Shown: positions 7,401-48,551, counted from the stretch's first letter. The stretch: 64,000 nt of DNA from a virus (IMGVR_UViG_3300027772_000010:1-64000); one strand, 5' to 3'. A program made the numbers and translations. Notes: a model not told the origin generated them from the letters alone.

Positions 7401-7402
7401 AA

Positions 7403-8353
7403 TTAATATTTTGTAAATGTATTATTTATTGTTTGAGATTTTCTTTGATCTAAGCCATGATAATGATTAGGTACTAAGAATTGATTAAGTGCTTCACCCA
7501 TAGCCCACATTTCATCAAATGTTTGAGTATTTAAATCTTCTCTAGCTTTAATTCTATATTTAATATATTCTCTTTGAGCCAGTTGAAAAAAGTTTAAATC
7601 AGCATTAGACTTACTTTTTCTATATTGAATATAAGCTAATTTTTCTTCTATTGCAGCTATTAAAGCATTAATAAAATTTTTAGTATTAGGAACTAATGGT
7701 AAATCACTTTCATCTACAGGTATAGATAAATATCCTAATATTATTTCAGCTTCTTTATAATCACATATTAAATATCCATTATCAATAGTAAAAGAATTTT
7801 GAGGTCTTAACTCTCTCTCAAAATCTACATTAGTATGTCTTAATAAAGATAATTCATTTTTTCTAGGCTGTAAAATAATCCACTCATTTCTATGTCTTTC
7901 AAACCAAGGGGTAAAATCTTGAACACTAGCAAATTGAAATGCTCTTGCTTGTTCTAAGTTTTGAATAAACAACCAACCATTAGTTTCTAAATAACTATTA
8001 TCACAAGAACAGTTATTTTCACATTTGCAATTTCTTCTATAAGTCCATGTGCAATCAGGATTATTAAAATCTTGTTTTATTAATTCTGTTAAAAAAAATT
8101 GCTCTCTTAAATGTTCTTTAGATTTAGCTAACACATATAAATTTTGTTTAAAACCACAAGGTAATTTTACTCTAAAATTTTTTACTTGTAATTTTTGTAC
8201 TTTTTCTTTATATTGTTTGGCTGTTCCTATTTCAAAATAAGCATCTATAATCCATTCAGTCATTAATTCTTCATTAAAATTAATTTCATTAGGAGCTATT
8301 TGTTTCCAGTTTTCAATAACTGTAGAAATGCTTGTAAATTGTAAATTATTCAT
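7403..8353 (-). CDS. Tail ring/tubular protein
   Basis: 316 aa with 'VKNFRVKLPC' and 'GYLSIPVDESDLPLVP' motifs; immediately upstream of the muzzle gene. Confidence 0.7.
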   Translation of the reverse strand: MNNLQFTSISTVIENWKQIAPNEINFNEELMTEWIIDAYFEIGTAKQYKEKVQKLQVKNFRVKLPCGFKQNLYVLAKSKEHLREQFFLTELIKQDFNNPDCTWTYRRNCKCENNCSCDNSYLETNGWLFIQNLEQARAFQFASVQDFTPWFERHRNEWIILQPRKNELSLLRHTNVDFERELRPQNSFTIDNGYLICDYKEAEIILGYLSIPVDESDLPLVPNTKNFINALIAAIEEKLAYIQYRKSKSNADLNFFQLAQREYIKYRIKAREDLNTQTFDEMWAMGEALNQFLVPNHYHGLDQRKSQTINNTFTKY

Positions 8354-8759
8354 CTTCTTTTAATTTTTTAGCTAAGTCTCTATCTAGTTGCCTGTAAGTT
8401 GTAAATTTATAATAAGTATTAATTACATTGTGGTTATAAATAATTCTATATCTAAATCTATTTGTGTGAAAGTTTGTATAGTATATTGTTTTTTTAAGTT
8501 TTTTAGTTAAGCCAAAATCAATTAATTTTTTATTTGACTTGTATCCTATTATTTTAAAAGAACCTATTTTTAATAAATTTAATGTATGTTTTTTTAATAA
8601 AATTTCTGCAGCTACTTTAAATATTTCTTTTATTACTTTAACATATAATTTTTTATCAGCATATTCTGTTTCTTTAATTACATCATAAACTGAATAGTAT
8701 TTTAAAGGTTTATTTATTTGTTTTCTGAGGGGAACCTGCATCTTCATTGAATGTATCAT
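8346..8759 (-). CDS. IHF/HU-like basic protein of the crAss-like tail module
   Basis: Lys-rich; 'LNLLKIGSFKI', 'IYYTNFHTNRFRYRI'; lies between ring genes. Confidence 0.6.
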   Translation of the reverse strand: MIHSMKMQVPLRKQINKPLKYYSVYDVIKETEYADKKLYVKVIKEIFKVAAEILLKKHTLNLLKIGSFKIIGYKSNKKLIDFGLTKKLKKTIYYTNFHTNRFRYRIIYNHNVINTYYKFTTYRQLDRDLAKKLKEDE

Positions 8760-9390
8760 TTATAACATCTCTATTAAAGTATTGATAAGTTTTTAATATC
8801 CTATCAGCCATCATATTATACATTTTATCTAATAGCCTTTCATCCAAAGGAAACTCTGTATCTAAGAAATCACAAACATTATCACAAGTATTTTTTACTT
8901 CAAAATCATCATAAAATAATGCTTGAAGTTTTACCCATTGTGGACTGTTCAAATCTGGAACAAATAAATAGTTATTTTTTATTAAATATTTAAAGTTATT
9001 TTCAGTATTACCTAGTTCATTATATCTTCTAAATGATTTAGATGATTCTGAAACAACTCTACTATAGTTATCTCCTCTATCATTATATACTTTAGTAACA
9101 ATATTATTAATTGTATTAGGAATAGGTTTTTTAGATTTTAACCATTTACAACCTGTAGGTAATTTTTCACAACATTCATTTGTGTCTGCTAATTCTAATT
9201 GTACACAATCTAATGTTTGTAAATTTAAACTATAGTTATAATCAGGATCTTTAATCTTGTCATAAAGCAAAACTCCTCTACATATTTTCATTAAATGATA
9301 AAAATATGCATAAGTAAATGCACTATCATCTGAAGGAAGTCCTTTATCCATAGGAACTCTAAACCCATTAATTATTTCTCGTATTGTCAT
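8710..9390 (-). CDS. Tail ring protein
   Basis: 226 aa; 'YLIKNNYLF', 'DFLDTEFPLD'; conserved position next to the IHF-like gene. Confidence 0.6.
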   Translation of the reverse strand: MTIREIINGFRVPMDKGLPSDDSAFTYAYFYHLMKICRGVLLYDKIKDPDYNYSLNLQTLDCVQLELADTNECCEKLPTGCKWLKSKKPIPNTINNIVTKVYNDRGDNYSRVVSESSKSFRRYNELGNTENNFKYLIKNNYLFVPDLNSPQWVKLQALFYDDFEVKNTCDNVCDFLDTEFPLDERLLDKMYNMMADRILKTYQYFNRDVINDTFNEDAGSPQKTNK

Positions 9391-9564: not shown

Positions 9565-10782
9565 TTAATTAAATATATGAGTAATTCTACTTATTTGCCC
9601 AAATTCTTTATGATGCAAAAATCCTTCAATTGCCTTAGGAACTCCTGTGTAACCATTTCTACTATGCCAGCTATCTGAAGCACTAGGACTTCTTAAACTT
9701 TCAATTGTAACCCCTATATGGTCTTTAGCAGTCTTATGGTGTACATGGTGAGTATAAATATATCTATGCTTACAAGTACTCCAATCTGTGCTTTCATGAG
9801 CCATTAATAATGGTAAGTCAGATTGTTTTGCACCATCACCATGTGTAGTTCCAATTAAATTGTTAAAATAACTATAATACTTTCTATGAGCTATTGAGCA
9901 ATCAAAAGTAATATTCTTACAATCTTTAAAATATGTTTTAATTACATCAGCTAAAAAGAACCCATTTGTATAATCATGATTTGATGGATTAAATACAAAG
10001 TGAACATTAGCTATAGGTAATAACATAGTTAATACATCTATATACAACTGCTTGGCTATCAAAAAATTATCATACCACATACCATCTGTATCTTGAGGAG
10101 TACCAGAAGTAGTCATTCTTTTTGGAGTATCAATATGTAAAATATCATTTCCTCCCACAAAAAGAATTTGATCTATATTAAATCCAGATGTTTTATCTAA
10201 AATTCCCTGGACTCCTTCTAAAACTCTTTTAACTGCTATTTGACTATTATAATCTTCTCCTGTCTCAAATGCTCTTGCAAGCTTACCCAGATGTATATCT
10301 GCAGGATCTATAACTAACAAGTGTCCTTCCTTAGAAGCAGTTCTTTTTATTTCAGGAAATACAGGAGAAAATTTTTGTAAATCAGAAACTAATTCATTAT
10401 AAAATTTATCTTCTTCTTGCTTTTTATATAAAGGATTAGTAAAAAACATAGATGCTGTATCATTTTTTAACCAGCCATGCTTTATGTCATTTACAGGAAC
10501 ACCTATGCTTAAACTTTCTTGGTAAATAGCATTTAATTCTTTAACTGTTTCTACCATTTCTAAAGGAACCCAAACATTAGTACCTTCAGTATTTTGTTTA
10601 GTATTTTTAACATTTCTTCCGTATGTACTTAATAAAAAATCAAGCTCTTCTGAAGTTAAGTTAAAACTATTATTGTTTAATTTTTTTAATAATCTTTTTT
10701 TATTGGGTCTTGCAATCTCTAAATAATTTTTATTATTACTTGTCCAATTTAAAAATTTAGTTACAACTTGTTGATTTACCAT
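9565..10782 (-). CDS. Calcineurin-like metallophosphoesterase
   Basis: Metal-binding motifs DIHLG, GNDILH, SNHD, HGD, HHVHH. Confidence 0.8.
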   Translation of the reverse strand: MVNQQVVTKFLNWTSNNKNYLEIARPNKKRLLKKLNNNSFNLTSEELDFLLSTYGRNVKNTKQNTEGTNVWVPLEMVETVKELNAIYQESLSIGVPVNDIKHGWLKNDTASMFFTNPLYKKQEEDKFYNELVSDLQKFSPVFPEIKRTASKEGHLLVIDPADIHLGKLARAFETGEDYNSQIAVKRVLEGVQGILDKTSGFNIDQILFVGGNDILHIDTPKRMTTSGTPQDTDGMWYDNFLIAKQLYIDVLTMLLPIANVHFVFNPSNHDYTNGFFLADVIKTYFKDCKNITFDCSIAHRKYYSYFNNLIGTTHGDGAKQSDLPLLMAHESTDWSTCKHRYIYTHHVHHKTAKDHIGVTIESLRSPSASDSWHSRNGYTGVPKAIEGFLHHKEFGQISRITHIFN

Positions 10783-10877
10783 GTTTTATGTGTTTTAATA
10801 TAAATAAAATATTAAAAATTAAACTAATTGTCAAAATTAAAAAATAATTTTAATATTATTCTAATTTTTATTAAGTA

Positions 10878-10885
10878 CAAAGATA
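10878..10885 (-). promoter_or_regulatory. Bacteroidota -7 element upstream of the phosphoesterase gene
   Basis: TATCTTTG in intergenic DNA. Confidence 0.6.
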
Positions 10886-10905
10886 CAATAATCTTTATAT
10901 TTTTT

Positions 10906-11367
10906 TTATTTTATTTTTAAACCAAATGAAATACCTATGCCAGGTTGAATGCCTTGTGGGGTAAGTGATAAAGTAGGTCCTGCAATTAAAGAAAATTTAT
11001 TTTTAGACTGTAAATATTGTATATGATTTTGTCTTACAGTATCTCTAACTAATAATGTTTTAATTAAAGTATCTGATTTAATTATTACATTATCACAATT
11101 TATAAGTGAATTTTTTAAAGCAATAACTAAACTATCACAAATAGAATCTTTGCCTGCAACATACTTTTTATCTATGCTATAAACAATTTCTTTAGATTTA
11201 ATATAATGGTTTTTTACTACTTCTCTATCTACTATTAAAGTATCTATTTTTTGAGAAAGACTATCTGCTAGTCTTTGAATTATAGCTTCATCTTGGGAAA
11301 GTTTATTATGTGAAAACCACATATATGTCCCAAACAAAGTAACAAGGATTATAAGTATATATTTCAT
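10906..11367 (-). CDS. Spanin-like lysis accessory protein
   Basis: N-terminal TM segment, coiled-coil middle, C-terminal beta-strand-like 'GIGISFGLKIK'; directly after the endolysin. Confidence 0.5.
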   Translation of the reverse strand: MKYILIILVTLFGTYMWFSHNKLSQDEAIIQRLADSLSQKIDTLIVDREVVKNHYIKSKEIVYSIDKKYVAGKDSICDSLVIALKNSLINCDNVIIKSDTLIKTLLVRDTVRQNHIQYLQSKNKFSLIAGPTLSLTPQGIQPGIGISFGLKIK

Positions 11368-11978
11368 TATTTAACGTATGTATAGTATTTAAATGTTTTT
11401 TCTTCTCTATCAACCAAACCATGGGTACCACCATTAATTCTTTTAGTAAGAGCTAATATAGTTTCTTTGGTTACACCTTTATCACATATATCCCAAAGTT
11501 TGTTTTTATCAAAAAAGAATTTAGCAGATTCAAAAGAAAGTTCTCCAGCTACTAAATCAGGGTTAGACATAATCTCAGGATTTTTTAAATAATCTGAAAA
11601 TGTTTGATAGTTTGATTTACCTGTTAATTGTAAAGCTCCCCTACCTCTAAATTTCCAACCATCTCCTGAAGCCTCATCACCATTCCCCATTCTTGAAGAA
11701 TAAACTTTGTTAGCAATTTTTTCAGGGTTTCTTGCATACTTAGGAGCAGTAGCACTTGTAAAATATTTTCCAAATATCTTAACTAATCCTTCTGCAGAAT
11801 AGTTTAAGTTTTCAGAAAAAGCTTTAAAGTTGCCAGACTCATGTGCTGTTTGTGCAAAAAAGTGTGCAGCTCTTTCTGGAGTAAACCCATAATATTCCAT
11901 GGCAGCTTTTAATGTTCCGGGGCCAAAAGCACCATCAGCTGTTACCCCAATTTTTTCTTGTAATTTACTCAGACTCAT
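11367..11978 (-). CDS. Endolysin, glycoside hydrolase family 19, with short N-terminal peptidoglycan-binding segment
   Basis: 'AHFFAQTAHESG', 'ENLNYS', 'FRGRGALQLTG', 'INGGTHGL', and 'LQEKIGVTADGAFGPGT'. The likely start is MSLSKLQ at 11978 rather than 12038. Confidence 0.9.
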   Translation of the reverse strand: MSLSKLQEKIGVTADGAFGPGTLKAAMEYYGFTPERAAHFFAQTAHESGNFKAFSENLNYSAEGLVKIFGKYFTSATAPKYARNPEKIANKVYSSRMGNGDEASGDGWKFRGRGALQLTGKSNYQTFSDYLKNPEIMSNPDLVAGELSFESAKFFFDKNKLWDICDKGVTKETILALTKRINGGTHGLVDREEKTFKYYTYVK

Positions 11979-12225
11979 TTTCTTTATTTTTATTAGTGTT
12001 AATAATATTTGTAATTTTTTCTGTTGCAGCAATTCCAAATGAACCTAATACTAATATTTCAAATGCTGTAAATATAAACTCATTTACAATAAGTTCTTTG
12101 CCTAAGTAGCCTGTTATAATATCTACTGTTGCAAATAAACACATCATGATAAAAGCTAAAAATCCTATTACAGATTTTTCATTAATGGAATTGTCATCAC
12201 AAAACATTTCTCTTAAAAATTTCAT
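11965..12225 (-). CDS. Small two-TM membrane protein, holin candidate
   Basis: 86 aa, two hydrophobic helices, charged C-tail, overlaps the endolysin start. Confidence 0.55.
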   Translation of the reverse strand: MKFLREMFCDDNSINEKSVIGFLAFIMMCLFATVDIITGYLGKELIVNEFIFTAFEILVLGSFGIAATEKITNIINTNKNKENESE

Positions 12226-30032: not shown

Positions 30033-32525
30033 TTATAGGTTTTTAATTTCTTTTTCTAATTTTTTATTTTCTAATTCAATTTTTTTTAATTTCTCAACAT
30101 CTATTTCAGATTGTAAACTATTACTTTGTTTTAATTTTTCAAGTTCAAGTAAATCATTTTCTTTGTTTTCATTAATATCATTAAGCATTGCAAACCTAGA
30201 AGAACTTATTTCTGCAGCCTGTAAAGTAGTAGCATTTTTATCATCTGCCATTTGTTTTTGAAACTGCATTCTTTGTTGCTCTACTTGCATTTGCATTTGT
30301 TGCATTTGCATTTGTTGTTCTTGTTGTTGTTGAACTGCTTGCTCATCTCTCTTAATCTTATCTTCTTGAAGTCTATTTATAACATTTTTAATGTCTGTTG
30401 CATTTTCAGAAGTTAAAATTTCAGGAACTATTCTTAAGTCTCCACCTGAATTTTGTATAAGTGGTTGAATTAATCCTTTTAACTCATTGATTACCTGCGT
30501 ATCTTTAAGTGTATTTGTAATATATACTTTATAATTATAATTAGCAAAATCAACTAACTCTGTATTTAATGTAGCTACACTTAGGTCTGATAAAATATAA
30601 GAAGCTTTTAATGGGTTATCTTTATAAATTACTTTACAAATTTCTATAAAGTTTTCAGTAGTTCTTTCTTTTACATAATTATGCATATAGAACCACTTTT
30701 CTGTTTGATTAGAAGATTGTATAATATTTTGTTGATTATTACCTATAGACTCATAAGGAGATTGCATTCCTAATCTGTTAGGATTATAACTCATAGCTTG
30801 AGTCATTTTTCTCTCAATATAATCTAATAAGTTTATTTTTTGTGCAATGTCTTGAGTATGAGATAGATTTATACTTTTCCAATACTGAGGGTCAATCCCC
30901 ATACTTCTTAAATCCCCATCTTTTGAAGCACTAATCAAAGCTACTTTAAACTTCTTAATATATGTCATCCATTGTGTAGGAGTAAGGTCTTTAGGTATTT
31001 GCTCTTGTAAACCTAATAGTATATTACCTATATCAGTTTTCATAATCTCTATAATTTGATTTACAACCACATTATAAAGATACTGCCAAGGCTTTCCTAA
31101 ATCTGCAATAGATATTGGTGCAGAGTTTCTTGCAGAGTAAACTGTTCCTGTATAAGGTCCTCTTATTTGAAAAGGATTATCAATATCTCTATATTGATTA
31201 GGAATAGGTTCAATTTTTAAATAAATCTTAGGATTGGTAAAAATCTTATAACCATGCCAATATTCTGGTATCCATAGAATTTCTTGTTTAATATCTGTAG
31301 CTTTATTAAATACATAAGTCTCATCAGCAATACTCTTTTCTAAAGTATTGTTCTCATTTAATCTATAAATATATTTAATTTTTTTCAGAGTCTTCCATAC
31401 AATATGGGTTACTCTAAGTCTTCTAGTTTTATAATTATCATTATAATCATCTTGCCAAGGATCTGCCCAAGTAGGTGTATTTTCTGAATTTACACCATCC
31501 ATAAGAGCATTAGGAATTACTTCCCATACTTTAGAATCTGAAGGAGAATTTAAAGTAGATTCATATTTATCTAAAACTTCTCTTTCTTCTTCAGTAATGA
31601 TATTACCAAAATGTTGGTATATTTCATAAATACTTAAATATTCATCATAAGTGCACCAGTCAGACTCATCTAAGTAATCTATATCTTTAGACTTAGAGTA
31701 GTTAAAATATAATGGATTACAAGCTTTAATAATAGGCTTACCATTCCATTCTCCAGTCCAGTATACTTCTTCTCCTGTAATAATTACATCTTTCCAACCT
31801 TTATCAAATATACCTTTTAATCTATCTGTTCTTATGTGATATTGTAAAATTTCATCTGTTAGCTTTTCTTCAGGCAATTTAAAATGATTTGCCATGTATG
31901 TCTCTACCTCTACAGGAGTTGTTCTCTGTAAGGTTTGCTCTATTTGAGAATCTAGACTTTGCTGTAATTCTTCTAATTTTTTTAAATATTCAGGATCTAA
32001 TGTAGGGTCCATATTAGCCCTAGCCTCTTGAATTTTTTTAGCATTATCTGCTTTTATCTTTGTTAGTAATTGTTCTTTTACTATTTTTGAAGTATTTTCT
32101 ATTAACAACTCTTTGCGAGTTTTTTGTCTAACAGCCTCACTATTAGAACTAGTTGTAACTACTCTTAAGTTAAAAGGCCTTTTAATCTCTTCTCCCTCTA
32201 AATCATTTAACACATTTTGTAGTATAGGGAAATGAATATAGTCACTTTGGTTAAATTCCATTTCTGGAATATCAACTCCTAGTTCTGTAGAAATAACTCT
32301 ACCAGTATCTAAGTAACTATCAAAGTCCATTCTACCATTAAATAACTCATAGTTTATTTTGAACTTTTCTTTTCTTTCATTATAAAAATTATATTGGTTA
32401 GCAAAAAAATCCATTTTTGCTCTAGCCCATTCATAATTATTTGCTATTTTTTTATTATAGGAATATCTATCAGTGCCTACTTGAGACAAAAGTACACCAC
32501 TAACATAATTTTCATTTACTACCAT
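30033..32525 (-). CDS. Portal protein
   Basis: 830 aa; 'NYELFNG', 'LEGEEIKRPF', 'KPWQYLYN'; Q-rich C-terminal coiled-coil barrel; directly after TerL. Confidence 0.9.
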   Translation of the reverse strand: MVVNENYVSGVLLSQVGTDRYSYNKKIANNYEWARAKMDFFANQYNFYNERKEKFKINYELFNGRMDFDSYLDTGRVISTELGVDIPEMEFNQSDYIHFPILQNVLNDLEGEEIKRPFNLRVVTTSSNSEAVRQKTRKELLIENTSKIVKEQLLTKIKADNAKKIQEARANMDPTLDPEYLKKLEELQQSLDSQIEQTLQRTTPVEVETYMANHFKLPEEKLTDEILQYHIRTDRLKGIFDKGWKDVIITGEEVYWTGEWNGKPIIKACNPLYFNYSKSKDIDYLDESDWCTYDEYLSIYEIYQHFGNIITEEEREVLDKYESTLNSPSDSKVWEVIPNALMDGVNSENTPTWADPWQDDYNDNYKTRRLRVTHIVWKTLKKIKYIYRLNENNTLEKSIADETYVFNKATDIKQEILWIPEYWHGYKIFTNPKIYLKIEPIPNQYRDIDNPFQIRGPYTGTVYSARNSAPISIADLGKPWQYLYNVVVNQIIEIMKTDIGNILLGLQEQIPKDLTPTQWMTYIKKFKVALISASKDGDLRSMGIDPQYWKSINLSHTQDIAQKINLLDYIERKMTQAMSYNPNRLGMQSPYESIGNNQQNIIQSSNQTEKWFYMHNYVKERTTENFIEICKVIYKDNPLKASYILSDLSVATLNTELVDFANYNYKVYITNTLKDTQVINELKGLIQPLIQNSGGDLRIVPEILTSENATDIKNVINRLQEDKIKRDEQAVQQQQEQQMQMQQMQMQVEQQRMQFQKQMADDKNATTLQAAEISSSRFAMLNDINENKENDLLELEKLKQSNSLQSEIDVEKLKKIELENKKLEKEIKNL

Positions 32526-32560: not shown

Positions 32561-34867
32561 TTAATAATTTATTAAAAGTTTATTTTTGAGCCTGTTATTA
32601 TGCAATTCTTGATAAAAATCTAAACTAGTTTTTTTAACAATATTTTCTGTCTCCTTAATAACCAATTCTTTATCTTGTTCAATCCAAAGCATTAATAGTA
32701 AAAAAGCAGATACCCTGTCAAAGTTTCCCTTATCATTGTATTGTATAAGTTCTTCTAATAGCAAATCATCTTTAATTGTATCTAAGTTTCTGACAATTAT
32801 TTCTCTATTAGTTCCATCTATTAACTCTTCAACATATTTCTTTTTTTCTTCTAGCAACCATTGTTGGGACAATCTTAGAGCATATTGCTTTAGAGGATTT
32901 GTCATAGGTACTCCTACATCATATTTCATTGTAGGGTCTTTTACAGCCTTTTCAATAATTTGTTTAGGTGTGGGAGCAAGTATATGATAGTTGCCTGTAC
33001 GCATACAATAGTTTTTAAAGTCAATAATGTTATTCTCAAACATTACTTGTGCATTAAAATATTTAGCAGCTAAAACACATTGTAAATGAATATCTTCAGG
33101 CATATCATACCTTCCTACCCACCAAGCTACTAGCTCATTACCATTGCCATCTATTGTGTTATTAGATTTGTAAACATATATAGCAGCCAATGATGTACCA
33201 CCCCCCTCATCTTTAATAGGGTCATAAATTATTTTATATAAATTAGTAGGAATTAATCCAGCAGGAGGGTGTTCATAAAATTCCCAAGCACTTTGTAAGT
33301 TAGATTTTTGGTCATGAGGGAATCTATCAATAGGTCTCAAGTCTGTATCAGCCCTAAATTTTACTCCAAAAATATAATCTTTATCAGGAATTAAACTTCC
33401 AATTGTTCTTAAGTGTTTTTTGTATTGGTACTTATCATTATTTGCTTGAACTTCCCTAAGCATAGCAATAGGAAACTTATTACCTGTCCTAGATAAAAAC
33501 ATTTCTGAAGGCTTAATAGGCCTAGACATTATTAATTCATCATAAGCTACAGTATTGTTAGCTTTTTTAGCTTTCTCTCTTTCATAATACTCATACTCTA
33601 ATGCTTTTTCTATATTAGTATTTCCATTCTTATCTTTAAACATTTCATTGGTATAATAAGCTGGTAAGAAAAATCCTATTTTATTTCTACCCTCATAAAT
33701 ATCATTAAAACTTAAAAAATCATAAGCTTCAGGATCTCTAAATATAATCTCTGTTTCAATAACTTTGTCCACATCTCCTGATGTACCAATGTATAAAGAA
33801 GACCCAAACTTACCTGTTCCCAAGTCTTGTGTAGATCTATTAGCTCCATGTATTGTGAGCAAACTATCCTCCAAACCTACCTCTTCTATTACTATTACAG
33901 TATAACGACCTCCAACTGCAGCTTGCTTATTTTCTTTAAAAGTTTCATGTTTTAATAATGTTCCTGTACCTACAACTTTTGTAGTATTTCCAATTTTTTT
34001 CTCATAATGAAATCTATATGGATTTTTAGAATTACCTACTTTTAATGTTCCAGAACTTTGTCTAGAAAAAGGAGGAGGAAACATTTCTCTACCATTTGAG
34101 TATTCTCCTGGTAAATTATCAAGAGAATCTTTAAATTTATCTAGTAAATCTGAAGATTTAGAAGCAATAGGTGCACCACAAAATATCTCTACTTTATTTC
34201 TCTTAGCTAAAAAGTCTTCCATACTTTTTGCCCCATCTGTTAAATACTCATGCTCTAATATAGCTGATGCCATAAAAGATTTACCACCCCCCCTAGATCC
34301 AAACAAGAATAAATTAGTAGAGTAGTTATCATATAAAGGTATACCTAAAGGCTCTTTATGAGTAGAGTTTAAACATTCTAAAGGATCTATATATTCTTTT
34401 AATGTACCATTTTCTTTATAACAATCTTCTGTTAAAGTCTCTAGTAAATGTAAAGGAATATCAGCATTATTAGGATACTTTAATTTTTGTTCTTTTAGAT
34501 AAACTGTATAGTTAGAGGTATAATCAGGATCATCTTTAAACCCACTAAATCCTCTAGCTATAAACCATAAGTTCATTATAGTATAATTAATATCCCAAAG
34601 AAAAGGCTTACTTTTAATCCTTTGTTTTTTTACTGTAACCATCATTGTATGATAGTTAATAAAATAATATAGTTGAGGAGGAATAAATCTATATCTTATT
34701 CCTTGTTTAGTTTCTTCTTTTCCCCAATAACCATAAATTAATCTATTCAATTCTTCTGTCCAATATATTTCATAAGCAGAACTATTAGGATGTAAGTTAG
34801 GATGGGTTTTAATAAAATCTGAATTATCCTCTATTATAGGAAATAATAAATCTGTATTTATTGTCAT
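32561..34867 (-). CDS. terL: Terminase large subunit
   Basis: Walker A GSRGGGKS, Walker B IVIEEVG, 'GTSGD', nuclease motifs 'YDP', 'FENN', 'NFDRVSA'. Confidence 0.93.
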   Translation of the reverse strand: MTINTDLLFPIIEDNSDFIKTHPNLHPNSSAYEIYWTEELNRLIYGYWGKEETKQGIRYRFIPPQLYYFINYHTMMVTVKKQRIKSKPFLWDINYTIMNLWFIARGFSGFKDDPDYTSNYTVYLKEQKLKYPNNADIPLHLLETLTEDCYKENGTLKEYIDPLECLNSTHKEPLGIPLYDNYSTNLFLFGSRGGGKSFMASAILEHEYLTDGAKSMEDFLAKRNKVEIFCGAPIASKSSDLLDKFKDSLDNLPGEYSNGREMFPPPFSRQSSGTLKVGNSKNPYRFHYEKKIGNTTKVVGTGTLLKHETFKENKQAAVGGRYTVIVIEEVGLEDSLLTIHGANRSTQDLGTGKFGSSLYIGTSGDVDKVIETEIIFRDPEAYDFLSFNDIYEGRNKIGFFLPAYYTNEMFKDKNGNTNIEKALEYEYYEREKAKKANNTVAYDELIMSRPIKPSEMFLSRTGNKFPIAMLREVQANNDKYQYKKHLRTIGSLIPDKDYIFGVKFRADTDLRPIDRFPHDQKSNLQSAWEFYEHPPAGLIPTNLYKIIYDPIKDEGGGTSLAAIYVYKSNNTIDGNGNELVAWWVGRYDMPEDIHLQCVLAAKYFNAQVMFENNIIDFKNYCMRTGNYHILAPTPKQIIEKAVKDPTMKYDVGVPMTNPLKQYALRLSQQWLLEEKKKYVEELIDGTNREIIVRNLDTIKDDLLLEELIQYNDKGNFDRVSAFLLLMLWIEQDKELVIKETENIVKKTSLDFYQELHNNRLKNKLLINY

Positions 34868-35121
34868 TCTTTAGGAGGTCCAGGTTTTATATCTTTTCTT
34901 TTACTTGTATCTGAAGGGTGGTCATTAATTCCTTTTAAAAAATTATCTATAGTAGAATTTAAATCTATTGGAATAAATGTAATTTTTATGGGATCAAAAG
35001 CAACATAATTATATTCTTCAAATTCTTTTAAAGCAAGTCTTAACTTTTTTTTTGTGTCTTTAGCGGAAATATCTCCCTCTACCTCAATAACTTTATCTTC
35101 GGTATCAATCAATATTATCAT
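34864..35121 (-). CDS. Hypothetical protein
   Basis: 85-aa ORF coupled to terL. Confidence 0.55.
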   Translation of the reverse strand: MIILIDTEDKVIEVEGDISAKDTKKKLRLALKEFEEYNYVAFDPIKITFIPIDLNSTIDNFLKGINDHPSDTSKRKDIKPGPPKE

Positions 35122-35299
35122 CTTTTACATTTAACTCTTCAGCATTTTTTTTGTCTAGTTCTTCTTGCCAAGCAGCTTGTTGAGCTTTATTATAAGTTTT
35201 CATAATACTTGAATACCAAAAATATCTTCCTTCTTTTAGGGAAAACCTTTCTCTTTGCTTTGGTTGATTATATTGATTTGGTGTGTTCATTGGGTACAT
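35105..35299 (-). CDS. Hypothetical protein
   Basis: 64-aa ORF in the operon. Confidence 0.5.
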   Translation of the reverse strand: MYPMNTPNQYNQPKQRERFSLKEGRYFWYSSIMKTYNKAQQAAWQEELDKKNAEELNVKDDNID

Positions 35300-35305
35300 A
35301 GTATG

Positions 35306-39589: not shown

Positions 39590-39904
39590 TTAATCCAAAA
39601 ATACTAGTTCCTTTTCTAACATTTCCTCTAAAGTATCCTCTGTAAACTCACTACAATCCTTTGCTAATTGCACAAAAGCCTCAAAATCATCCTTATGTAT
39701 TCCGAATCTGTCTAATTTATAGGTCTCATAAGGAGCACAAGTCTCATCTAAGGTAATCTCTGCTAACTGTACCCCCTGAATATTACCCTGATTAGGATGA
39801 ATAGTTATCCAAATACAAGTATACTCCTGCCCCTTAATAACCCACTTCTTTGAAGGTATCTCATCAGGCTTGTTTAAGTCATTGATACATATTAATCTAC
39901 ACAT
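39590..39904 (-). CDS. Hypothetical phage protein
   Basis: 104-aa ORF with small beta-barrel-like pattern and acidic tail. Confidence 0.6.
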   Translation of the reverse strand: MCRLICINDLNKPDEIPSKKWVIKGQEYTCIWITIHPNQGNIQGVQLAEITLDETCAPYETYKLDRFGIHKDDFEAFVQLAKDCSEFTEDTLEEMLEKELVFLD

Positions 39905-39909
39905 ATTAT

Positions 39910-40101
39910 TTATTTTTTATGTTCTTCATAATAATTTAAAATAAATCCTAAAAGTACTACTATGTTCATACCACAAGATACCAGTACCTCATGTATATCC
40001 TCATAGATAGTAGTCATAAGGTGTATATGCCCCACTGTCCAAAAAGGAATAGCTAGGTTTTGTGAAATCCACACAATTAAATACTTGAAAAATTTTATCA
40101 T
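39910..40101 (-). CDS. Small membrane protein
   Basis: 63 aa with two hydrophobic stretches; promoter element at 40116-40123. Confidence 0.55.
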   Translation of the reverse strand: MIKFFKYLIVWISQNLAIPFWTVGHIHLMTTIYEDIHEVLVSCGMNIVVLLGFILNYYEEHKK

Positions 40102-40115
40102 ATTTAAATTTCATG

Positions 40116-40123
40116 CAAAATTA
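40116..40123 (-). promoter_or_regulatory. Bacteroidota -7 element re-initiating after the ncRNA terminator
   Basis: TAATTTTG, intergenic. Confidence 0.55.
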
Positions 40124-40146
40124 AATATTTTTTTTCAACTAGTAAT

Positions 40147-40189
40147 AAAAAAAAATACCAGCTTCTTCTAATTAAAGAAAAAACTGGTA
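40147..40189 (-). terminator. Intrinsic terminator closing the candidate ncRNA
   Basis: TACCAGTTTTTTCT-TTAATT-AGAAGAAGCTGGTA followed by T9. Confidence 0.75.
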
Positions 40190-40562
40190 CCTATAAGTAA
40201 AATATTGTTTATATAACTCTAACCCTTTAACTAATAAGTTAAATAAGTTCTTTTAAAGCATAAAAAGGTTAACCCAGACTTAACAGGCATACCAGTATTT
40301 TAGTAAACTTAGTTTCTTTGTTCCTATTAAGTAGTTGGTTTATAAGTAATCATATATCTCTACTTAGATTACCTACTATCCTGTATACATTAAAAGTAGA
40401 ATTACTCTATTTAAACTTTTAATCTTTCTCTCCTTACCCTTCAGGTGAGCTTGTTATCCTGGGAGGTCCTACCTTATTCAAAACTATCTAGTGAAATCCT
40501 TACCAACCAACTTTTCAGTTCAAATCTCAGGGCACTAGAATTTGTCTCAGTGAAAAAACTGA
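40147..40562 (-). ncRNA. Candidate large structured non-coding RNA (~415 nt)
   Basis: Promoter TAACTTTG upstream, terminator at the 3' end, no ORF, several helices including a 13/14-bp long-range helix and a 7-bp pseudoknot. Confidence 0.6.
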
Positions 40563-40564
40563 TG

Positions 40565-40572
40565 CAAAGTTA
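40565..40572 (-). promoter_or_regulatory. Bacteroidota housekeeping-sigma -7 element
   Basis: TAACTTTG matches TAnnTTTG and points into the ORF-free unit. Confidence 0.65.
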
Positions 40573-40775
40573 AGTAAAAAAAAGTTATTGATACCATATT
40601 TTTTAAAAATTTTTCTGAAGACCCCGTAAAATCTAAATTTTTTAAAATTTTTTTTAACCCCCTAGGCAAAATTGTTTTTGAAATTGAGTGCTGGAGTATC
40701 CCTCCCTCCAAGCCCCAGCTAACTTCGGGATTTTGGAATAGCCCCACCTATTATTAACAATTAAATTTTTCAATT

Positions 40776-41168
40776 ATGCAATCAAATTCCAGTACAACTG
40801 TAGTAGGCTCAGCCACTTACACACAAATTGATACTCTAGTAGTGTCACCAATTACTTGTCAGATAACTTCTAGCAAGGTAGTCCACTCTGACAAAGATAA
40901 CTCTGACACTCAAGTATTTGAGCTTGAATTTCTAGGGGAGTATAAAGGCGCAGGTATGCAAAAGGCTTATAGAAGATTAGGCCAAGGTATCACCAAGACT
41001 GGCGAAGCCTTTACTGTAGCACCTTTGAAGACTTTGGACAACTGCGAGATTATAGTTACCAAGAGAGATTCTGATGGTACTGTATTCTTCTCTGTTAAAG
41101 GCAGAGCAAAGGATTTCACTGCTGAAGCTGCTGATGCTGCTGCAAGAGCCAAGAGTATCTTTGGTTAA
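40776..41168 (+). CDS. First early gene; beta-rich hypothetical protein
   Basis: 130 aa, visibly less AT-rich than its neighbours, with its own terminator. Confidence 0.7.
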   Translation: MQSNSSTTVVGSATYTQIDTLVVSPITCQITSSKVVHSDKDNSDTQVFELEFLGEYKGAGMQKAYRRLGQGITKTGEAFTVAPLKTLDNCEIIVTKRDSDGTVFFSVKGRAKDFTAEAADAAARAKSIFG

Positions 41169-41172
41169 AAAT

Positions 41173-41200
41173 AAGGGGAGAAATCCCCTTGTTTTTTTTT
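41173..41200 (+). terminator. Intrinsic terminator
   Basis: AAGGGGA-GAAA-TCCCCTT-G-T9. Confidence 0.85.
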
Positions 41201-41439
41201 AGTATTTTTAACACATTTAATAGGAAAAGAAATATAATAATTTATCTAATTTTTAATTTATTAATTAAAACACAAAATAAATTATTTATTTTCTAAACCA
41301 ATTTATTTTTATTTAATTACCTATTTAACAAAAAAATTAATCTTAAACTCTACATTGTTAGTTGCCATATCTAACAACATAAAGTTTTCAAGTTTGGTAT
41401 CTATAATACCTAATTTTTTTTGTTAATAGTTTGGAAATG

Positions 41440-41481
41440 AGGGAGTTTGGTTGGTAGTATTACTAAGAACTCCCTTTTTTC
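41440..41481 (+). terminator. Terminator-like hairpin
   Basis: AGGGAGTT...AACTCCCT followed by T runs. Confidence 0.65.
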
Positions 41482-41545
41482 CTTTTTTTTCAAAACACAT
41501 TATAGGCCTTTTGGTACATTATATAGCAAAATGTTTATTTTTTAT

Positions 41546-41598
41546 ACCTGAGCTACAGGGTTTTTTAGATTACACAGAAGCTAAGTGAAAGTAATCTA
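41546..41598 (+). ncRNA. Two-hairpin RNA motif, copy 1
   Basis: ACCT-GAGCTACA-GGGT, then TAGATTAC-ACAGAAGCTAAGTGAAA-GTAATCTA. Confidence 0.6.
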
Positions 41599-41599
41599 T

Positions 41600-41705
41600 A
41601 TAATTAAATGCACCATAACTCACTTCCCAAGGGTGAGCAGTTGTAATATCAGTACAAAGTAGAAATACTGGGGTACTTATTACAATTGAGTGCAGAGGGA
41701 AATAA
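41600..41705 (+). ncRNA. Twister-like ribozyme candidate (P1-type order)
   Basis: AA-TGCAC (P2)...CTCAC-TTCCCAAGG-GTGAG (P4/L4), 11-bp P5, GTGCA-GAGGG; loop CCC can pair with GGG. Confidence 0.5.
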
Positions 41706-41828
41706 AAACTTAACAATCCTAAGTTGTTGAAGGCACTTAGTTCCCTAATAATTTACGAATATTGAATTAACAACAGTTCTTTATAGTATTTTATTAGGGT
41801 TTTAGTGTAAAACACAATCCATTATTAA

Positions 41829-41881
41829 ATCCTGAGCTACAAGGATCAAGAACTACTACAGAAGCTTAGTGAACAGTAGTT
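41829..41881 (+). ncRNA. Two-hairpin RNA motif, copy 2
   Basis: ATCCT-GAGCTACA-AGGAT, then AACTACT-ACAGAAGCTTAGTGAAC-AGTAGTT; loops conserved with copy 1 while the stems differ but still pair. Confidence 0.6.
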
Positions 41882-41909
41882 TTTATAATTAATATTAAAC
41901 AATATAACT

Positions 41910-42008
41910 ATGTTAGGAATTATAGTAATTTTCATAATGGTCTACGGATCATATTGTGCTAAGAAAGCACACCAAGAAATAATTAACAACAAAAAACTTT
42001 TTAAATAA
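41910..42008 (+). CDS. 32-aa membrane peptide, not in the ORF track
   Basis: MLGIIVIFIMVYGSYCAKKAHQEIINNKKLFK; A-rich leader. Confidence 0.4.
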   Translation: MLGIIVIFIMVYGSYCAKKAHQEIINNKKLFK

Positions 42009-42049
42009 CAAATAATTAACTTTATTAACACTAAAAATTAACAAAAAAA

Positions 42050-42649: not shown

Positions 42650-42881
42650 CAACATGAATTCAAATTTTTTATCAAAAGTATGTATAGCTTTATTTTTAAC
42701 AACCTTATTTTTATTAATTTCCTCATTATTATATGTTTATCATCAAACCAATTTAAACGCAACTTTGTTTGAAGTAGAGTTAGTTGATAGAGATATATTA
42801 GTTTATGACAATGATAATTTTGTAGGATCAGTAGAATTGCAAGGGCAATTAGACAGTCTAATGACTGATTACTTGCAGTAA
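42621..42881 (+). CDS. Early membrane protein
   Basis: Single TM segment; the true start is probably the internal MNSNF. Confidence 0.55.
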   Translation: MTYYLTLKINNMNSNFLSKVCIALFLTTLFLLISSLLYVYHQTNLNATLFEVELVDRDILVYDNDNFVGSVELQGQLDSLMTDYLQ

Positions 42882-42924
42882 ATTTATAAAGACATTAAAC
42901 TTAACTAACAAACCTTTTAATGGG

Positions 42925-42965
42925 ACTGTACCTTTTAGCATTTAGCTATTAGGTGCAGTTTTTTA
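42925..42965 (+). terminator. Terminator-like hairpin
   Basis: ACTGTACCT...AGGTGCAGT followed by a T run. Confidence 0.6.
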
Positions 42966-42989
42966 TTTATTAACATTAACTTATTTAAA

Positions 42990-43196
42990 ATGAAAGATCC
43001 AAACTTAACAAATTTAATTGATATTAAGTTAGCTGCTTTGGTAGCTCGTAAAAAGTCTGAAAATAAACTTAGTAATCAAATAGCAGAGAATAAACTTTGG
43101 CCTTCAACATTACAAGAAAATTCAGTATCACATTTTAGTGCTCAAAACACTAACTATAGTGCAATAATACAAACCATTAAAAATTATAATGGATAA
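42990..43196 (+). CDS. Early hypothetical protein
   Basis: 68-aa ORF with A/T-rich leader. Confidence 0.55.
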   Translation: MKDPNLTNLIDIKLAALVARKKSENKLSNQIAENKLWPSTLQENSVSHFSAQNTNYSAIIQTIKNYNG

Positions 43197-43317
43197 CAAA
43201 TACATTTAAGGCATTGTATATAGTTGCCACACAAAACACAATATAGTTTTAAATGTATAGGTAGCTCAAACCTTAATCAGAGCTCTGTTTGTCAACTACA
43301 TAATAAGTTGATACCTT

Positions 43318-43350
43318 GGTGGTTATATGGTTAAACCACTTTTTATTTTT
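43318..43350 (+). terminator. Terminator-like hairpin
   Basis: GTGGTT-ATATGGTTA-AACCAC-TTTTT. Confidence 0.55.
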
Positions 43351-43458
43351 TAAATAAGATTATGACTAAAAAGAAAAAAATTAGTATAGTATTTGACTTT
43401 GAATCTGTTGTAGAAATAGATTGTTTAGATTAAAAATTAACCTATTAACAAAAAAAAT

Positions 43459-47683: not shown

Positions 47684-47693
47684 TAATAAAGAT

Positions 47694-47879
47694 ATGAATG
47701 AAGCAAAATTAAAAGCAAAAGAATTAGTTGACAAAATGTTACATTGTTATCAAGGTAATATTGATGAATATACTGCTAAACAATGTGCATTAATAGCAGT
47801 TGATGAAATATTAGATGCTTGCAAAACTTATTTATCATCATATTATTTAGAAGTTAAAAAAGAAATAGAAAAATTATAA
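47694..47879 (+). CDS. Small helical phage protein
   Basis: 'KAKELVDK...AKQCALIAVDEIL...YYLEVKKEIEKL', a pattern I recognise from Bacteroidota phages. Confidence 0.65.
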   Translation: MNEAKLKAKELVDKMLHCYQGNIDEYTAKQCALIAVDEILDACKTYLSSYYLEVKKEIEKL

Positions 47880-47882
47880 ATT

Positions 47883-48140
47883 ATGGTACCTAATGAATTA
47901 TTAAATAAAATGTTAAATTTTGCAGAATCTATTACTGACCAATTACAAAAAGCAAAGTTAATTAATGGAGCATACAATACATGGTATTTAAATACTTCTA
48001 AACAAAATCCTTATTCTTATAATGATATAAAAAAAGAAAAAGTTTATTATGATGGTACTACTCCAATTTATTATTGTAAAGAAAATACTGCAATAATAAA
48101 AAAATTAAACACTGCTACAAAAAGAAAGTTAAAACAATAA
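47883..48140 (+). CDS. Early hypothetical protein
   Basis: 85-aa ORF. Confidence 0.55.
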   Translation: MVPNELLNKMLNFAESITDQLQKAKLINGAYNTWYLNTSKQNPYSYNDIKKEKVYYDGTTPIYYCKENTAIIKKLNTATKRKLKQ

Positions 48141-48150
48141 AATAAATTTT

Positions 48151-48342
48151 ATGAATTATATAATTATTAAAAAAATTAAAGATTTAAAATCAAATAAAGA
48201 ATTACCAGTTATTCTTTTAGACACTCATGGAGAAGTATTAGAATATCATACAATTGAAGAAGCTGAAGAAATGAGAGCTAGATTTGAGGTTAATTCAGAT
48301 TCAGGACATGTATACACAATTAAAAAAATTGGCACAATTTAA
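48151..48342 (+). CDS. Early hypothetical protein
   Basis: 63-aa ORF. Confidence 0.6.
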   Translation: MNYIIIKKIKDLKSNKELPVILLDTHGEVLEYHTIEEAEEMRARFEVNSDSGHVYTIKKIGTI

Positions 48343-48348
48343 AAAATT

Positions 48349-48546
48349 ATGGAAATTAACATTAACTTATTAGAAGCTGCATCTGAATTAGCACATGAAG
48401 TTGTATGTGCAAAGTTTAACGATGATGACAATTTAATACACATGGAAGATGCTGATGGTATATATTATACAGAAAAAGCACAAAACTTATTTGACGAATG
48501 GTACGACCATTATTACAATTTATTATTAAACTTAAAAAATAATTAA
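48349..48546 (+). CDS. Early acidic hypothetical protein
   Basis: 65-aa ORF. Confidence 0.6.
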   Translation: MEININLLEAASELAHEVVCAKFNDDDNLIHMEDADGIYYTEKAQNLFDEWYDHYYNLLLNLKNN

Positions 48547-48551
48547 AAATT

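Follow-up and report, generated by a model that had tools for sequence, protein, structure and literature searches.

A probable trans-acting structured RNA gene conserved within one group of crAss-like phages

Genomic setting of the locus

The crAss-like phages are among the most abundant phages known. The window analysed here, a stretch of 64,000 nucleotides of viral DNA (IMGVR_UViG_3300027772_000010:1-64000), was found to belong to such a phage (order Crassvirales). Its minus-strand arm encodes TerL (32561-34867), the portal protein (30033-32525), the crAss tail-ring and muzzle proteins, an endolysin and an SbcD-like exonuclease, and its plus-strand arm encodes a family-A DNA polymerase, a ribonucleotide reductase, PhoH and helicases. 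A Pfam census of 49 ORFs returned capsid, PhoH, ribonucleotide reductase, helicases, SET domains, LRR and holin. The nearest deposited phage is Cellulophaga phage phi14:2, with a TerL identity of only 34%. An SD-like core was found upstream of none of the phage genes (0/59), which fits a Bacteroidota host.

The putative RNA gene described here is located on the minus strand inside an 870-nt gap (39905-40775) at the point where the two arms diverge. The cumulative GC skew of the window turns at this locus, a turn that here merely tracks the coding strand. The start of the replication arm is occupied in the window by two long spacers on the plus strand, 41169-42049 and 42650-43458. The TerL genes of some relatives carry insertions of about 1 kb which could be introns or inteins.

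Distribution of homologous loci

Searches with the neighbouring proteins, together with a DNA search of the matching records, recovered near-identical copies of the locus at 96% as well as one copy of 78% identity. The latter is carried by a complete phage genome of 140 kb, at a distance of about 30 kb from the neighbour gene. Altogether about 45 homologous loci were found on viral and metagenome contigs. The loci recovered by scanning with patterns of the conserved blocks, after removal of duplicates and chance matches, gave 17 distinct sequences that fall into ten subclades (A1-A4 and B1-B6), the window carrying the A1 form. All copies belong to one group of lake-water crAss-like phages and occur in syntenic contexts, the TerL proteins being at least 71% identical among all TerL relatives recovered, and each of four complete genomes carries exactly one copy of the RNA. 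A covariance model built from clade B alone recovered every clade A copy at full length, with scores of 119-131 bits.

Among the genomes searched, the RNA family is confined to phages. The pattern scan of 185,579 prokaryote species genomes, one for each species, gave no genuine copy, only seven chance matches in DNA that is unrelated and either GC-rich or coding; when 151 sampled Bacteroidota genomes and two MAGs were searched with the covariance model under strict filters, no match was obtained, and blastn against deposited phage genomes likewise gave none. The comparison of the copies predicts an RNA of about 410 nt in the window phage and of about 330-415 nt overall, with a conserved core of about 255 nt and about 330 nt that are recognisably common to both clades.

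The transcription unit

The unit opens with a -7 promoter box, TAACTTTG (40572-40565, minus strand), which is present as the initial annotation had proposed and has the form TAnnTTTG of the Bacteroidota sigma-A type; from it we infer a transcription start near 40558. The position of the box is the same in every subclade while its 'nn' bases differ (TAACTTTG, TAGCTTTG, TATCTTTG and TATATTTG), and the homologous block begins at the predicted transcription start, the promoter sequence itself differing between the clades. In clade B the complete pattern of a Bacteroidota primary-sigma promoter (TTG, about 19 nt, TAnnTTTG) was found at the level of sequence, as TTGACA followed by TTG-N19-TATATTTG with the TTG 19 nt upstream of the -7 box; in clade A only the -7 box is present, and the -33 site reads TGG. 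As a bare motif, TAnnTTTG is no more frequent in the AT-rich window than expected (123 found against 125), and support for the promoter therefore comes from its conserved position in all subclades combined with the variable 'nn' bases.

The region that follows is non-coding. No ORF of at least 20 aa is present on the minus strand inside 40147-40546, in agreement with the absence of ATG-started ORFs over about 20 codons noted initially, and none appeared in the RNA region under TAG=Q or code 4 either (three genetic codes tried). The one-base indels that distinguish the clades sit in the most conserved part and break every frame.

At its 3' end the unit is closed by an intrinsic terminator (40144-40192, minus strand), a stem of 17 pairs (40192-40153) followed by T9, which bears out the hairpin and T9 run of the initial annotation. 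Two terminator-like sites were found in the 900-nt region against 0.3 expected from shuffled sequences, and the stem is maintained by compensatory changes across all clade A subclades. For the clade B gene, a strong terminator is first met about 200 nt farther downstream, past a second promoter. Beyond the terminator the window contains the second -7 box that had also been claimed, TAATTTTG (40123-40116, minus strand), serving the downstream 63-aa gene. An ATG at 40114 is ATA in close relatives, which places the true start codon of that gene at 40101. Taken from these sequence features, the RNA gene is most likely transcribed by the host RNA polymerase with its primary sigma factor and terminated by the intrinsic terminator.

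Helices of the conserved fold

The 17 sequences were segmented on invariant anchors and each helix was tabulated, all of them on the minus strand. Near the 5' end, P1 (CAAAU/AUUUG, 40544-40540 with 40525-40521) is a tentative helix, the sole changes in which are a U-A to U-G replacement and one mismatch in A3, with no double compensation. Its loop holds the 5' strand of a pseudoknot helix, PK (UCUAGUG/CACUAGA, 40539-40533 with 40493-40487), in which seven of seven pairs are standard in all sequences. Pair 5 of PK is G-C in seven sequences and A-U in three (subclades A2-A4), and pair 4 is A-U or G-U, having changed from A-U to G-U in several clade B lines. The pseudoknot suggested initially on the grounds of its perfect complementarity is thus also covarying across subclades. 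Between the two strands of PK stands the P2 hairpin (AACU-GAAA-AGUU, 40509-40520), three of whose four pairs change on both sides (AACU/AGUU, AGGG/CCCU, AGAG/CUCU and AGAG/CUUU), with an invariant GAAA loop (40516-40513) in 17/17 variants. The initial annotation had placed here a different 5' helix (40562-57/40520-15), which can be drawn in the window sequence; it has no equivalent in clade B and would destroy the covarying P2 hairpin.

The multi-branch core appears to be closed by the long-range helix P3, GUUGGUAA/UUAUAAAC (40507-40500 with 40345-40338), in which 93.6% of cells pair. P3 is a perfect helix of 8 bp in B1 and B3-B6, imperfect in clade A owing to a G-A mismatch and a G-U pair, and partly disrupted in B2; it shows no double compensation, and its support from the alignment is moderate. 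A helix of 13/14 bp had been proposed for this region (40499-512/40333-346), of which the inner 8-10 bp (40508-40499/40346-40337) are retained in clade B and the remainder is not, its outer four pairs competing with P2. Two of the helices drawn initially, the 5' helix and the full 13/14-bp helix, are accordingly not conserved, and P1 and P3 are the weak points of the present fold model.

A nearly invariant stretch of 33 nt (AGAUAGUUUURAAUAAGKWAGGACCUCCSAGGAU, 40490-40458) is found in both clades, and within it fall the 5' strand of P7 and the first part of P4. It varies only at the covarying bases of these two helices and by one inserted base in A3 and A4, and it is a candidate functional site. 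P7 (GGUAG/CUACU, 40473-40469 with 40334-40330) pairs in 100% of cells and occurs as GGUAG/CUACU, GAUAG/CUAUC and GUAAG/CUUAC: its first pair is G-U or G-C, its second G-C, A-U or U-A, and its third U-A or A-U, giving three different Watson-Crick pairs at one position. As P7 crosses P3, the core would contain a second pseudoknot.

The core itself is composed of three hairpins. P4 (CC-CAGG/CCUG-AA-GG, 40463-40458 with 40445-40438) pairs in 100% of cells, and CAGG/CCUG of clade A becomes GAGG/CCUU in clade B, a C-G to G-U replacement in which both sides have changed. It is followed by a purine block, AGGAGAG (40428-40434), that is invariant in the alignment and could pair instead with CUCC at 40465-40462. 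P5, AUUAAAAGU/ACUUUUAAU (40423-15 with 40397-89), is a variable hairpin with an inner UAGAG-UAA-UUCUA hairpin, and at this site clade B forms a longer hairpin of two parts, within which further compensatory changes occur (AAUAGGA/UCCUAUU vs ACAGGA/UCCUGU; CUGGG/CCCAG vs UUGGG/CCCAA). P6 (GUAAUC/GAUUAC, 40372-67 with 40351-46) changes on both sides at three of its four inner pairs and is extended by P6a (GUA-GAGA-UAU, 40363-61 with 40356-54), the two spanning 40346-40372. P6a covaries as well (GUACA/UGUAU vs GUAUG/CAUAU; GUA/UAU vs GUC/GAU), and its GNRA loop (40360-40357) reads GAGA, GAAA, GCAA or GUGA. The 9-bp helix (40389-97/40415-23), GTAATC/GATTAC and CAGG/CCTG of the initial annotation are therefore all present, with covarying equivalents in the relatives. 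An extra helix in clade B, ATTTC/GAAAT (P3b), was left out as it competes with the better-supported P6.

The 3' domain (40193-40329) contains a conserved AAUAGGAACAAAG, a variable linker, a small hairpin region GGGUUAACC and a hairpin UUUAACU-UAUU-AGUUAAA. The domain is structured in clade A, where the last of these hairpins covaries (UUUAACU/AGUUAAA, UCUAACU/AGUUAGA and UUUUAC/GUAAAA), and it is more weakly conserved in clade B. About 300 nt from the start of the RNA, a small hairpin leading into U-rich sequence is conserved in both clades.

Statistical support for the fold

The locus does not stand out by folding energy, whether the terminator is included (z = -2.3) or the core is taken (z = -0.35). 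As this energy and the bare motif counts were unexceptional, evidence from a single sequence could not settle whether the unit is real, and the relatives could. MAFFT and model-based alignment shift the 5' strand of PK by one base between the clades, and because of this misplacement PK was counted on a sub-alignment anchored at both strands. On that sub-alignment 100% of 110 cells of PK and P2 pair, with a covariation score of 0.442 against 0.179 +/- 0.033 in shuffled alignments (0/500 as high). For six further helices on the full alignment 96.7% of cells pair, 10 pairs change on both sides and the score is 0.298 against 0.154 +/- 0.010 (0/500 as high). When the partner columns were slid by 1-3 positions, pairing fell to 33-55% in both tests. 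The family is narrow, and its 17 sequences are to be read as perhaps ten or so independent compensatory events and not as 43 independent cells. Compensatory changes in homologues, named initially as a check on the fold, were found for PK, P2, P4, P5, P6, P6a and P7. Covariation in the alignment thus supports the predicted fold in PK, in P2, in the second long-range pseudoknot helix P7 and in four more helices.

The G-U pairs of these helices would be A-C mismatches on the opposite strand, which identifies the minus-strand RNA as the molecule that is folded. This bears on the proposal that the region contains only DNA-level elements, such as binding sites or a packaging signal, or encodes a micro-peptide, with no functional RNA. 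The locus is AT-rich and ORFs of fewer than 20 codons are possible; the compensatory changes, however, preserve Watson-Crick and G-U pairs on one strand only, the one-base indels disrupt all frames in the conserved part, and promoter and terminator are conserved in matching orientation. We give this proposal almost no weight.

A GAAA tetraloop and its receptor

Group I introns and RNase P RNA are known to be locked in shape by contacts of a GAAA loop with its receptor. Between P6 and P6a the RNA has an internal loop whose sequence is CCUAAG/UAUGG in all of clade B and in A2-A4, and UCUAAG/UAUGA in A1, the form of the window (UCUAAG, 40368-40363, with UAUGA, 40354-40350, minus strand), with covarying P6 and P6a on its flanks. 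In A1 the outer C-G pair is replaced by U-A. The canonical 11-nt GAAA-tetraloop receptor has the sequence CCUAAG_UAUGG (bioRxiv 10.1101/2024.03.11.584472), and by this match we identify the P6 internal loop as such a receptor, with the closing G-U pair that is expected of it. The loop that it would receive is specifically GAAA, and not merely GNRA, in 17/17 sequences of P2, whose stem covaries. The bare CTAAG...TATG pattern is at chance level in the window (10 found, 18 expected), and the contact accordingly draws its support from the helical context, from invariance amid covarying flanks and from the matching GAAA loop. Most likely, the P2 loop docks into the P6 receptor, either within one molecule or between copies.

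The Tetrahymena-type group I P4-P6 domain has the same receptor sequence, two flanking pairs, UAA/AU internal loop and closing G-U, and it likewise presents a GAAA hairpin loop, which in the phage RNA is invariant. Only this tertiary module is common to the two, whereas topology, genomic setting and the remaining sequence are unrelated. In phi14:2, patterns resembling the 11-nt receptor occur at chance level.

Selection pressure and relocation of the gene

The conservation of the RNA was compared with that of its neighbours in a complete clade A2 genome. The core (236 nt) showed 93.6% DNA identity, compared with 85.3% for the ring protein, 84.8% for TerL, 82.7% for the portal and 79.1% for PolA; the adjacent spacer (40573-40775) showed 75.5%, and the other long spacers were almost unalignable. 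As judged from these identities, the RNA core is under stronger purifying selection than the neighbouring protein genes, and more constrained than the genes with which the phage packages its capsid.

The gene occupies different positions in the two clades. In clade A it lies at the strand switch and is followed by the 63-aa and 104-aa genes; here its initial description as the head of the late arm is apt. The description fails for clade B, where the gene is located behind the lysis genes about 30 kb off, between the endolysin/153-aa genes and the SbcD-like exonuclease, and about 34 kb from the strand switch. It is placed there inside a block of genes of one direction, away from the minimum and turn of the GC skew. 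The window homologues of the clade B flanks are found at 11367-12038, at 10906-11367 (the endolysin/153-aa pair) and at 9565-10782 (the exonuclease). A gene that has its own promoter and occupies two unrelated genome positions in sister clades would act in trans and not as the leader of a neighbouring gene, and trans action is what we consider most likely from the arrangement of the sequences.

These positions were weighed against two cis-linked explanations. In the first, the RNA is a leader or riboswitch whose 5' domain senses a ligand or protein and controls read-through of a weak GGG-NNAA-CC(C)-U-rich hairpin into the downstream genes. The small conserved hairpin with U-rich sequence about 300 nt into the RNA of both clades is what such a leader would possess, and the invariant 33-nt stretch could serve as its binding pocket. 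The downstream genes, which a riboswitch would keep constant, are however wholly different (63-aa and 104-aa genes in A, the SbcD-like exonuclease in B), clade A has a strong terminator and a fresh promoter before the next gene, and no riboswitch of Rfam matches, so that a leader function is very unlikely. In the second, the RNA is an origin-associated primer, of the type of ColE1 RNA II or the T4/T7 origin transcripts, made at the strand switch to start replication. Its position in the window, at the divergence of the arms and the turn of the cumulative GC skew, suits this idea, as do the G runs and A/T tracts of the adjoining spacer. The relocation between clades argues against a primer linked to an origin: the clade B gene is about 34 kb from the strand switch and skew minimum. 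Moreover, the skew merely follows the coding strand, and primer RNAs need no fold of a tetraloop-receptor and double pseudoknot. We rejected the primer on the position of the clade B gene and hold it to be extremely improbable.

Comparison with known RNA families

As had been proposed initially, the locus was searched against Rfam, and no family in Rfam 15 matched. The scan of the whole window with Rfam 15, whose families include GOLLD, ROOL, OLE, raiA, HEARO, RNase P, tmRNA, 6S, group I/II introns and riboswitches, gave 0 matches; at E values up to 10 over 39800-41000 it gave only three chance-level matches to unrelated small families, and in five homologous loci no match lay within the RNA at gathering or permissive thresholds. 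ARAGORN reported 0 tRNA or tmRNA genes in the window. Together with Rfam 15, this confirms that hallmarks of tmRNA, RNase P and tRNA are absent, as stated in the initial annotation. The RNA family appears to be new, being absent from Rfam 15 and not found in the literature searched. The earlier suggestion of a possibly undescribed large phage ncRNA gains from this absence together with the non-coding character, strong selection, covarying fold and phage-only distribution of the locus.

It could nevertheless be asked whether the RNA derives, as a remnant or in free-standing form, from a self-splicing intron or known ribozyme (group I, RNase P RNA or tmRNA) and has diverged beyond recognition by Rfam. 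The GAAA loop with its 11-nt receptor, the GNRA loops and the crossing helices are what one typically finds in group I introns and in RNase P RNA, and the TerL insertions of about 1 kb in some relatives could be introns or inteins. Against this stand the lack of any credible Rfam match at E values up to 10 and the negative ARAGORN result, and the RNA is intergenic and directly downstream of its own promoter in both clades, hence without exons. The order of strands also differs from that of group I introns, where P4-P6 separates the two 5' strands of the P3-P7 pseudoknot and P8 its two 3' strands. Here the order is the 5' strand of P3, the 3' strand of PK, the 5' strand of P7, the hairpins P4, P5 and P6, the 3' strand of P3, 3 nt, and the 3' strand of P7, with three hairpins between P7 5' and P3 3' and only 3 nt between the two 3' strands. 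No G-binding site or splice sites were identified in the RNA. Descent from a known ribozyme is hence highly improbable.

Among known phage RNAs, GOLLD and ROOL are similar in being phage-encoded, stand-alone and several hundred nt long, with multiple pseudoknots and long-range contacts; we know of no protein partner for either. These large RNAs of phages and prophages form RNA-only cages, and a covarying 'tertiary' kissing contact of ROOL proved to be intermolecular (Kretsch et al., Nature 2025, PMC12286853). By analogy, PK or the loop-receptor contact of the present RNA could be intermolecular as well. The RNA is however smaller (about 330-415 nt, against about 580 to more than 800 nt), shares no sequence or profile similarity with them, has no adjoining tRNA genes and is restricted to one Bacteroidota-infecting crAss-like group. 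The pRNA of phi29 is likewise a structured phage RNA with its own promoter that acts in trans and multimerises by loop-loop pairing, but it resembles the RNA neither in sequence nor in size. Nothing ties the RNA to packaging, and the crAss-like phage here encodes a conventional TerL and portal.

To our knowledge, almost nothing is known of non-coding RNAs in crAss-like phages, and phi14:2, the closest cultured relative, is the only one with a transcriptome. Two abundant long non-coding RNAs have been described from the g004-g006 intergenic regions of phi14:2, highly expressed from the earliest time point and persisting through infection (Drobysheva et al., bioRxiv 10.1101/2020.03.07.982082). 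They resemble the present RNA in being gene-free units. They lie at the start of the replication arm, however, a position held in the window not by the RNA gene but by the spacers 41169-42049 and 42650-43458. The covariance model gave no match in the full phi14:2 genome, and against its bases 1-9000 with filters off model R1 returned only noise, with a best E of 0.066 inside a coding region. By these searches, the RNA and the long non-coding RNAs of phi14:2 are not detectably homologous.

Possible functions of the RNA

On the sequence evidence as a whole, the locus is very probably a real, trans-acting, structured RNA gene. The stand-alone gene would be transcribed by the host RNA polymerase from its Bacteroidota-type promoter up to the intrinsic terminator. 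In the transcript, a 5' H-type pseudoknot (P1 and PK) and the second pseudoknot (P3 and P7) would clamp the multi-branch core of P4, P5 and P6, while the GAAA loop of P2 would dock on the P6 receptor, in an intra- or intermolecular manner. The resulting compact RNA may bind a host or phage protein, or self-assemble, during infection, with ribozyme activity as a lesser possibility. A compact protein-binding, self-assembling or catalytic RNA made by the host RNA polymerase is therefore our best guess by analogy with known systems. A constitutive promoter of the host type and a stable fold would give an early and persistent abundance like that in phi14:2. With respect to a protein partner, the gene content (Pfam, 49 ORFs) showed no evident RNA-handling protein, and no reverse transcriptase, Ro60, RtcB or RNA ligase among them. 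As for antisense targets, complements of at least 10 nt between the RNA and three phage genomes were scattered, AT-rich and in no case conserved between the clades, although this is a weak test.

RNAs this dense in tertiary motifs are usually ribozymes or scaffolds, and those of such intricacy known to us have so far nearly always proved to be catalytic, to serve as guides or to form large self-assembling particles. With its length of about 255 nt, the core has an architecture of ribozyme grade, with two predicted pseudoknots, GNRA loops and a canonical tetraloop receptor, and the RNA is small enough for in-vitro study, which makes the question of its function addressable now. That it represents a previously unseen class of phage ribozyme, or of RNA particle that assembles itself, in which the GAAA-receptor contact and the 7-bp PK are partly intermolecular as in the ROOL/GOLLD cages, seems to us rather unlikely. 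If true, crAss-like phages would make general use of abundant folded non-coding RNAs, the phi14:2 transcripts included, in taking over Bacteroidota hosts, a means overlooked so far. The window itself contributes the clade A form of the RNA, the finding that the gene was relocated between clades, P7 with its second pseudoknot, and a comparison with phi14:2.

We also considered an SD/anti-SD role, in which the invariant GGACCUCC and AGGAGAG act as a decoy for the 16S tail/bS21 or form a hidden ribosome-binding site, and dropped it on the SD use of 0/59. Each genome has GGACCTCC just once more, within a small coding ORF that precedes TerL.

Non-coding elements on both arms

The spacer between the promoter of the structured RNA and the first plus-strand gene (40573-40775) shares 75% identity with clade A2, which belongs to one of the two sister groups (A and B) of homologues of this RNA. 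The spacer could be the site of early promoters used by a virion polymerase, or of an origin. As a side observation, its minus strand carries the G runs GGTGGGGC, GGAGGGAGGG, TAGGGGG and ACGGGG in alternation with long A/T tracts. The plus arm, which encodes the replication genes, starts with two gene-free stretches of ~800-880 nt (41169-42049 and 42650-43458), and their conservation was minimal even against clade A2, being restricted to one 42-nt patch. The two are separated by an ORF of 199 aa, an arrangement which mirrors that of g004-g005-g006 in the Cellulophaga phage phi14:2, the closest cultured relative, where the spacers give rise to abundant long non-coding RNAs (bioRxiv 10.1101/2020.03.07.982082).

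Further along, within the spacer 47684-48551, we identified a patch of 103 nt (47775-47877) with 84-86% identity to two sites in a clade B3 genome (G006 81627-81729 and 69959-69917). The patch is a repeated and conserved non-coding element.

In clade B, a second promoter (TTG...TATCTTTG) is located directly 3' of the RNA, with a strong terminator hairpin after it (L018:3700-3845, on the contig of a relative, with the equivalent site in L008 and L023). The stem of this hairpin covaries (ACCCCUUGC/GCAAGGGGU vs AACCCUCGC/GCGAGGGUU) and its loop GA(A)UUCCCUUUG is conserved. The promoter and hairpin may represent a separate RNA of ~75 nt or may mark where the transcript of clade B really ends. The counterpart of this site in the window, the spacer 10783-10905, contains two TAnnTTTG boxes (the Bacteroidota -7 element), and the covarying terminator hairpin of clade B was absent from it.

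Translation initiation and gene content

The regions upstream of the window genes are A-rich, and a GGAG, GAGG or AGGA core at -20 to -4 was found in none of the 59 genes of the whole window as compared to 8% of random 17-mers. This pattern is that of SD-independent initiation in the Bacteroidota style.

The Pfam census of ORFs on both arms revealed two SET-domain proteins, an LRR protein, a DUF932 protein and a STAND-NTPase-like match, the other genes being typical of crAss phages. No tRNA gene is present in the window. Among the relatives, L054:2840-2965, ~2 kb away from the clade A4 RNA gene, matched the Rfam tRNA model with 36.6 bits, above the gathering threshold, and the 126-nt length of this match suggests a tRNA carrying an intron or long insert.

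The apparent gap of 438 nt upstream of TerL (34868-35305, minus strand) was found to be coding, with two small overlapping ORFs of ~67 and ~80 aa whose conservation extends to clades A2 and B3. They may represent either a pair of small-terminase-like genes or the product of a frameshift. Their junction lies at ATGATAATATTGATTGA; the second ORF, with the C-terminal end ...KPGPPKE, overlaps the start codon of TerL. In several relatives (L111, L112, L114 and L121-L123) the TerL match extends over ~3.3 kb and not 2.3 kb, which suggests an insertion of ~1 kb, an intron or intein, in their terminase gene.
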